From: a virus
Lineage: Duplodnaviria; Heunggongvirae; Uroviricota; Caudoviricetes
Length of the DNA: 24,587 nucleotides
Virus record (IMG/VR): IMGVR_UViG_2724679236_000014
Span: 1-24,587 of that record
Strand: one strand, 5' to 3'
Shown: in pieces, positions 22,049 through 22,627 of the stretch
Layout of the letters: each line of letters opens with the position of its first letter
How positions within the stretch are numbered: position 1 is the stretch's first letter
Made by a program: the position numbers and the translations under genes
The notes under the pieces: model-generated
The model's input: only the letters and a program-made list of their open reading frames with translations
The model's database searches: none
Told to the model about the DNA's origin: nothing

Positions 22049-22204
22049 TTACTCCTCAGGTTCGTAAGCTGTGAAGACAGCGACCTCCGTCTGCCCGGTT
22101 CGGATTCGTACCTCGCAGAGATCTTTCCTCGTTACCAGTGCCGTCACTACGACGGTAATACAGATGACGATCAGGGCGATTAACATCGCCTTTTGCTGCT
22201 TCAT
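22049..22204 (-). CDS. hokD: Hok-family type I toxin, HokD/RelF-like (51 aa); absent from the ORF track because it is short
   Basis: Manual translation of the minus strand gives [51 protein letters not shown]: one TM helix plus a periplasmic tail, matching E. coli HokD as remembered. Confidence 0.8.
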
Positions 22205-22627
22205 AGCCTGATTCTCCTGTTTGAGTTCATTTCCGGCGTGAATGTTACTGAATCCCCGATCATCTATCGTGACGAGACTATGCGCACCGCCTGCTCTCCC
22301 GATGGTTTATGCAGTGACGGTAACGGCCTTGAACTGAAATGCCCGTTTACCTCCCGGGATTTCATGAAGTTCCGGCTCGGTGGTTTCGGGGCCATAAAGT
22401 CGGCTTACATGTCCCAGGTGCAGTACAGCATGTGGGTGACGCAAAAAGATGCCTGGTACTTTGCCAACTATGACCCGCGTATGAAGCGTGAAGGCCTGCA
22501 TTATGTCGTGGTTGAGCGGGATGAAAAGTACATGGCGAGTTTTGACGAGATGGTGCCAGAATTCATCGAAAAAATGGACGAGGCACTGGCTGAAATTGGT
22601 TTTGTATTTGGGGAGCAATGGAAATGA
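22193..22627 (+). pseudogene. exo: 5'-truncated lambda exonuclease (exo / Red-alpha) remnant; homology covers about the C-terminal 135 aa
   Basis: [55 protein letters not shown]...[11 protein letters not shown] closely matches the lambda Exo C-terminus as remembered; the N-terminal ~90 residues are missing and the track start is a TTG inside hok antisense sequence. Confidence 0.85.

Follow-up and report, generated by a model that had tools for sequence, protein, structure and literature searches.

A leaderless hok toxin gene at a deletion junction in a Rac-like prophage, probably a silent remnant of an intact hok/sok locus

The prophage to which the window, the whole stretch of 24,587 nucleotides analysed here, belongs is lambdoid, Rac-like and integrated at ttcA, and the window represents its right-hand part. 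A small ORF on its minus strand, which the original prediction had read as a 51-codon gene of the hok family, proved to be just that (Table 1): the profile search with Pfam HOK_GEF (PF01848) gave 83.2 bits (E = 9.4e-24, cut-off 22) over positions 1–42 of the 42 in the profile, above the gathering score for membership of the Hok/Gef family, and the translation displays the hydrophobic N-terminal helix followed by a polar domain with an LCE motif that characterizes these toxins. No upstream in-frame start codon that would extend the ORF is present in the ORF list, and a gene is called at this position in public assemblies of identical sequence. The encoded protein is identical to HokD (RelF) of Escherichia coli K-12 in 49 of 51 residues (96%), the two differences (L16I and I19V) being conservative, and shares 88% identity with HokW of VT2-Sakai (Sp5) and 98% with the hok product of phage Rac MN652886. 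Since the NCBIfam models fall below their curated cut-offs (Hok subfamily, 47.7 versus 73; HokA, 39.6 versus 89), the naming of the gene rests on the Pfam match and on the identity to HokD.

By analogy with its homologues, the window Hok protein should, if expressed, be a membrane-depolarising toxin. Induction of HokW leads to immediate growth retardation (PMC8621323), and a preprint describes overexpression tests of the coding sequences of ten Hok homologues, HokD included (bioRxiv 10.1101/2025.08.07.668861). According to the same preprint, A-to-I editing by TadA turns a Tyr codon of the hokC/D/E mRNAs into Cys; the Tyr47 codon TAC of the window gene (22064–22066, minus strand) keeps the TACG/TTACGAA context found at the editing site (GCTTACGAAC).

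Table 1. Features at and around the hok locus of the window, and the three rearrangements found to break hokD/hokW-type leaders (positions of the latter relative to the hok ATG).
Feature	Position	Strand	Basis
hok (hokD/hokW-type) toxin ORF, 51 aa, ATG start, TAA stop	22049..22204	-	ORF list, Pfam, HokD identity
hok Shine–Dalgarno sequence AGGAG, -14 to -10, last piece of the leader	22214..22218	-	Sequence, intact-leader alignment, end of Rfam sok/hok-leader model in parent
mok frame remnant, without start codon or SD	22056..22217	-	Three-frame translation
fbi (fold-back inhibitory) element in hok 3' UTR, 5' partner tac gone	21987..21999	-	Alignment
Intrinsic terminator of hok, with a 7-bp stem (5 G-C pairs) and a T run	21953..21980	-	Terminator scan
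Deletion junction, 3-nt microhomology CCT (+) / AGG (hok strand), common to both parents	22216..22218	.	Parent alignments
3' remnant of lambda-type exo, last 136 of 226 codons and stop, antisense to former hok leader position	22216..22627	+	Pfam YqaJ
ralR (Lar-family DNase toxin)	22624..22854	+	ORF list, profile search
RalA sRNA, 179 nt	22853..23031	-	Rfam RF02694, 209 bits
K-12-type relE-hokD fusion	-14		Loci L003, L008, L011, L110
exo'-hok deletion of the window	-14 (22218)		Survey profile
IS insertion, AGGAGA duplicated, intact leader on far side of IS	-14		Loci L034/L097/L100

Downstream of the toxin ORF, the window retains both elements expected at the 3' end of a hok mRNA, namely the fbi element CCUCAACGCACCC, whose sequence CCTCAACGCACCC is kept in all aligned hokD loci, and an intrinsic terminator. 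The terminator had been announced within 22049–22230; it is indeed present, although it lies downstream of that interval. The stretch of the 3' UTR between 21959 and 22040 (minus strand) also resembles Rfam isrK, a Salmonella prophage sRNA, at a level below threshold (31.3 bits, the gathering score being 50; E = 9e-5 for 900 nt searched); E. coli CE0021a (L001) carries a true isrK together with a C4 antisense RNA, both located downstream of its Q-like gene, and the window does not.

Upstream of the ORF, homology to the leaders of hok loci ends at 22218, leaving just 14 nt of leader, and the position of the breakpoint 14 nt upstream of the ATG explains why the Shine–Dalgarno (SD) sequence of hok is kept. 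Alignment to hok/sok and relBE-hokD loci, searched for residual tac, sokT or mok elements, showed this SD to be all that is left of the leader. Lost from the locus are the hok promoter, tac, ucb, the SD, start codon and first 15 codons of mok, the Sok target and the sok gene. The tac/hok-promoter sequence GGGTGCTTGAGGC, which is present in intact loci, is absent upstream in window-type loci, and the window lacks the parental mok start ATGTCTCGACAA found in loci L005, L010 and L013, the deletion having taken this start together with the 15 codons (MSRQLKISLLRAERQ). The original prediction had recognised no overlapping mok-like frame, which holds for the mok start but not for the frame as such, since 54 codons remain open across hok to a TGA at 22056–22058; this remnant contains no ATG, GTG or TTG, and no minus-strand ORF of at least 25 aa is listed in the mok frame. 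The predicted lack of sok was borne out: in the window, Rfam sok (RF01794) gave no match at the gathering score and none at E<=10, against 110–119 bits in intact loci (E. coli CE0021a, 110.7 bits; parental locus L017, 119.3 bits, with the sok/hok-leader model matching there at full length, positions 1–157, and ending at the hok AUG). Neither the Rfam search nor the leader alignment recovered intact mok or sok elements upstream of the gene.

The parental locus indicates what these losses entail. Its hok promoter includes a TAGAAT -10 box upstream of GGGTGCTTGAGG, and on the opposite strand, directly beyond the breakpoint, lies the sequence TTGCCT-17 nt-TAATCT, which is likely to be the sok promoter and is wholly absent from the window. 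In the predicted fold of the full-length parental mRNA, the 3' fbi element pairs with the 5' tac element (GGGUGCUUGAGG), and an upstream CCUCUU sequesters the hok SD through a GAAA-tetraloop hairpin, which was removed by the deletion. This predicted architecture agrees with the published description of hok mRNAs (PMC9841398, PMC4147584).

On the other side of the junction lies the 3' part of exo, which matches Pfam YqaJ (2.4e-15) over profile positions 67–149 only. The original prediction had placed antisense exo directly against the hok start codon and had taken that codon as the mark of a recombination junction; antisense exo is confirmed and the junction is real, but exo begins 14 nt 5' of the ATG, with the SD in between, and the junction lies at 22216–22218 rather than at the start codon. 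Beyond ralR, the plus strand carries a DUF1187 ydaC-like gene and xisR-like and intR-like genes, so that on the hok strand the upstream flank consists only of the antisense of exo', ralR, the DUF1187 gene, xis and int. As predicted, no relBE genes are present upstream: the scanned ORFs of the flanks contain neither a RelB nor a RelE/ParE domain, and the locus is thus not arranged as a relBEF operon. Downstream of hok, the minus strand carries a 70-aa ORF, DUF1367, YbcO/DUF1364 and DUF1133/Q-like genes, followed by lysis, terminase and structural genes.

Several features of this neighbourhood deserve mention in their own right. The RalR/RalA type I toxin–antitoxin pair appears to be intact and lies ~420 nt from the hok remnant, with RalA upstream on the same strand as hok. 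A TTG-initiated ORF of 144 codons (22193–22627, plus strand) runs from antisense hok through the junction into the exo remnant and, because it spans the junction, could be reported by gene callers as a chimeric `exonuclease'; no gene is called at this ORF in L016 and L023. Further away, a free-standing HNH_3/HTH endonuclease-like gene (331 aa, 13214–14209, plus strand) lies between the small and large terminase genes on the opposite strand, and the ~1-kb segment that carries it (about 13224–14235) is missing in the related prophage L018. The terminase large subunit is encoded by a 915-aa ORF (12009–14756, minus strand), with its domains at residues 511–899, and the N-terminal extension over the HNH insert is spurious.

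The junction could be rebuilt from both of its parents. The exo parent reads ...GAGC[CCT]GTTTGAG at the breakpoint and the hok parent, in reverse complement, ...GATTCT[CCT]TGCCTTTCGG, while the window reads ...GATTCT[CCT]GTTTGAG. The triplets joined in this way belong to the middle of exo (pL operon, plus strand) and to the first three bases of the hok SD (nin region, minus strand). On the hok side, the closest parent (L017; GCA_026209855.1) differs from the window by one mismatch in 7,001 bp (99.986%), and L015 and L005 are 99.8% identical over 10,170 and 4,170 bp; in all three the match ends at 22218 and is followed by an intact hok/sok leader. On the int side, five relatives (L019, L021, L022, L024 and L025) are 99.7–99.8% identical over 22216–24587 and carry recE-gam-bet-exo(226 aa)-ralR. 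Intact relatives such as E. coli ERP001 carry between ralR and hok a block of ~11 kb made up of early, immunity and replication genes. With both parents available at >99.7% identity, the deletion can be resolved at the level of single nucleotides.

Stitching L017 to L024, which overlap with 99.87% identity over 2,300 bp, gave a deletion of ~11.4 kb (9,986 + 1,456 bp, ~11.44 kb). Removed with it were 90 codons of exo, bet, gam, recE, ydaE, kilR, sieB, a repressor/cro pair, ydaT, the replication genes, the DUF1627, DUF977 and DUF551 genes and the entire hok regulatory leader. A single illegitimate deletion of this size in a Rac-like prophage at ttcA left the 3' two-thirds of a hok/sok locus.

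Megablast of 21700–22700 against 5,426 complete E. coli genomes returned two half-matches meeting at 22216/22218 and no genome spanning the exo-hok junction (0/5,426), and an exact search with the 41-nt junction in one genome per species gave no match. The junction was located in public assemblies by means of exact-protein look-ups, with 100% identity in GCA_027566315.1 (over 6,539 and 12,539 bp) and in the complete chromosome CP117678.1 (GCA_028622435.1). As independent assemblies, including a complete chromosome, are identical across it, the junction is not an assembly artefact. It is confined to a narrow lineage and is seen in a few near-identical assemblies. The hok ORF of the window carries no mutation relative to its parent, which fits a recent event and does not by itself indicate a loss of function.

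Taken together, these data make it probable that the window hok gene is a silent leftover of the ~11.4-kb deletion in an intact hok/sok prophage locus, and thus a product of recent decay. The event being recent and confined to a narrow lineage, the exo'-hok fusion is most likely to represent ordinary genome decay rather than a newly selected arrangement. That hok is silent, or expressed by read-through only, had already been proposed in the original prediction and seems the most reasonable reading of a locus in which promoter and leader are deleted, although the SD survives. Without its own promoter, hok would be transcriptionally silent or reached by weak antisense or read-through transcription. 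When the hok strand was scanned from int to hok for the sigma-70 consensus, no strong promoter was recognised; the only matches in this interval lie at 23097–23070 (10/12), upstream of RalA, and at 22527–22500 (9/12). The promoter of the RalA sRNA, 650–830 nt upstream on the hok strand, would be a possible source of read-through, and transcription continuing from RalA towards hok is conceivable, the terminator of RalA being predicted to be weak (5-bp stem, 14-nt loop and 4 U; PMC4041452). As the SD is kept and the anti-SD hairpin is gone, a transcript entering from upstream might be translatable; the predicted accessibility of the SD in hypothetical read-through transcripts varied from near 0 to near 1 across six assumed 5' ends. 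The loss of Sok would be tolerated, presumably because the hok promoter and mok-coupled translation disappeared in the same event. The annotation of this locus should accordingly read hok remnant or orphan toxin, and not a working toxin–antitoxin system.

The best sigma-70-like match of the region is found on the other strand, just past the hok terminator (ATGACT-18-TATAAT, 10/12; 21885–21914, plus strand), and points antisense across hok towards exo', ralR, xis and int. If active, this candidate promoter would produce an antisense RNA over the orphan hok gene, and it could drive ralR, pL being deleted.

A different outcome of the same deletion, which we regard as unlikely, would be the domestication of the orphan toxin. 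The leaderless cassette of SD, ORF and 3' UTR would then function at its new site: transcripts arriving from the side of RalA or of int, by read-through or in antisense, would be translated directly, free of the control exerted by the anti-SD hairpin, mok and Sok, much as relF is expressed from third position in relBEF. The intact SD and ORF, the removal of the anti-SD hairpin (CCUCUU, GAAA tetraloop) of the predicted parental fold and the position of RalA upstream on the hok strand, with its predicted weak terminator, are consistent with this possibility, as is the precedent of K-12 relF, which is co-transcribed with relBE and whose part of the mRNA accumulates (PMC3598666). However, the upstream flank, made up of antisense exo', ralR, xis and int, offers neither a co-oriented gene nor a recognisable strong promoter, and uncontrolled expression of Hok is expected to be harmful. 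The absence of the junction from all 5,426 complete E. coli genomes and its occurrence in only a few near-identical assemblies also argue against domestication, and the flanks, still 99.8–99.99% identical to the undeleted parents, leave no time in which selection could have become apparent. Moreover, a simpler account of the deletion is that the prophage lost its early region.

The remaining argument for domestication comes from the position of the breakpoint. Upstream regions were scored with an intact-leader profile in an unbiased collection of 127 hokD/hokW-type loci, which yielded 89 unique sequences; the sources were E. coli genomes, public assemblies, IMG/VR and genomes representing single species. 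A full leader was found in 83 of the 89 unique sequences, and the partial leaders among the 127 loci reduce to three independent rearrangements only, all of which start at -14 from the hok ATG (Table 1). A 9-nt tandem duplication at the same site (AGGAGAAGC) occurs in two contigs (L187 and L197) that were retrieved by a position-biased search; the pattern search with B at -15 was left out of the breakpoint survey because its design fixes where the junction falls. The anti-SD hairpin and the SD meet at -14, which is the only site at which the SD is kept while the anti-SD, mok and sok are removed, and which also lies just outside the apparent -35 box of sok on the other strand. With breakpoints distributed uniformly over a 175-nt leader, two further events would fall within +/-1 nt of the first with p ~3e-4, a post hoc value for n = 3.

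This clustering could reflect selection in favour of a leaderless cassette that can be translated directly, a structural hotspot or coincidence. A cut at -14 abolishes the coupling to mok, the control by Sok and the sequestration of the SD and would leave a directly translatable toxin gene, and on these grounds the stretch of ~260 bp from the SD to the terminator could be a toxin cassette that is recurrently liberated, by way of a hotspot or of selection and not by coincidence, a proposal to which we give little credence. If it were true, K-12 relF, the window gene and other hok genes without a leader could be expressed from any incoming transcription, and type I toxins would have a route to escape their RNA antitoxins and to be captured by new operons. 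The recurrence at -14, if real, bears on how type I toxin genes become uncoupled from their antitoxins.

Whether the deleted locus was a hok/sok locus at all also had to be considered. The parent could instead have been a K-12-like relBE-hokD operon: hokD would already have been leaderless, and a later deletion would have removed relBE and fused hokD to exo. Indeed, K-12-type loci match the window for 2 nt more, to 22220 (ACAGGAGAA), which would extend the microhomology with exo to 5 nt, and the relBE-linked loci L008 and L011 encode exactly the Hok protein of the window. The additional AC comes, however, from exo, the exo parent reading CTCAAACAGGG. In addition, the T within AGGAGAATCAGGCT is limited, among the loci examined, to window-type loci and to L005, L010, L013, L015, L017 and L018, all with an intact leader, while the K-12 type has G. 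The intact-leader loci with this T are 98.9–99.99% identical to the window for 4–10 kb downstream of hok, whereas K-12-type loci match over the 261-bp hok module only, at 96–97%, and are followed by rem, ydfU and ydfT instead of the 70-aa ORF, DUF1367, YbcO and DUF1133. The diagnostic T and the near-identical intact-leader parents speak against this candidate and leave it highly improbable. Judged from these alignments, the hok parent of the window is an intact hok/sok (hokW-like) locus and not a relBE-hokD operon, which would mean that relBE was never present there.

Still less probable is an artefact, in the form of a small ORF arising by chance or of two prophage fragments joined by chimeric assembly. 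The shortness of the ORF (51 codons) and the tendency of prophage mosaics to be misassembled would favour such an origin, but the Pfam E-value of 9.4e-24, the 96% identity to HokD, the identical junction in several independent assemblies, one of them a complete chromosome, and the clean microhomology signature, as of a real deletion, all speak against it.

The preferred reading, that of a silent remnant of an intact hok/sok locus, places the window gene among several known systems. [quoted passage not shown] Closer relatives are hokW-sokW of Sakai prophage 5 (VT2-Sakai) and other hok/sok loci of the nin region, which encode the same prophage-borne Hok subfamily and occupy the same position, between the replication genes and the Q-like antiterminator. 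Published hokW primers match the leader of the locus type of the window (as in L009) and the 3' UTR of the window itself, and the immediate parent, L017, is a complete hokW-sokW-type locus. In contrast to the window, hokW-sokW is a working type I pair in which the Sok RNA represses and HokW is made upon prophage induction (PMC8621323). Having lost sok, the mok start, tac and the promoter, as well as the immunity and replication region of the prophage, the window cannot operate such a circuit, and its locus may be viewed as a natural experiment on hok function without Sok, mok and tac.

The window also resembles chromosomal hok loci that insertions or sequence degeneration have disrupted in E. 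coli K-12, the regulatory region being affected and the toxin ORF intact. Insertions of IS150 and IS186 reportedly lie next to hokA/C/E. In the window, on the other hand, the disruption stems from a large internal prophage deletion and not from IS insertion or point mutations. Insertions and degeneration at chromosomal hok/sok loci have been noted in a review (PMC4147584).

The closest counterpart is hokD (relF) of K-12, in the relBEF operon of the cryptic Qin prophage. Both genes keep the same fbi element and terminator in the 3' UTR, both lack a promoter, tac, mok start and sok, with an Rfam sok match in neither, and both lose homology to intact leaders at the same nucleotide, -14, so that only the SD is kept. 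They differ in their surroundings, since in K-12 the co-oriented relB and relE genes supply a promoter from upstream and relF, the third gene, is transcribed only together with them (PMC3598666, PMC5120126), whereas the window has a truncated exo in antisense upstream and no co-oriented gene. In the open-access literature, no statement was found on how K-12 hokD lost its leader, and this point rests on our own alignment. The loss itself has reportedly been described. The different parent, the diagnostic T and the different downstream genes set the two events apart, and the leaderless state with an SD as the only leader element was thus reached in the window independently of K-12, making this locus a second, independent leaderless hokD.
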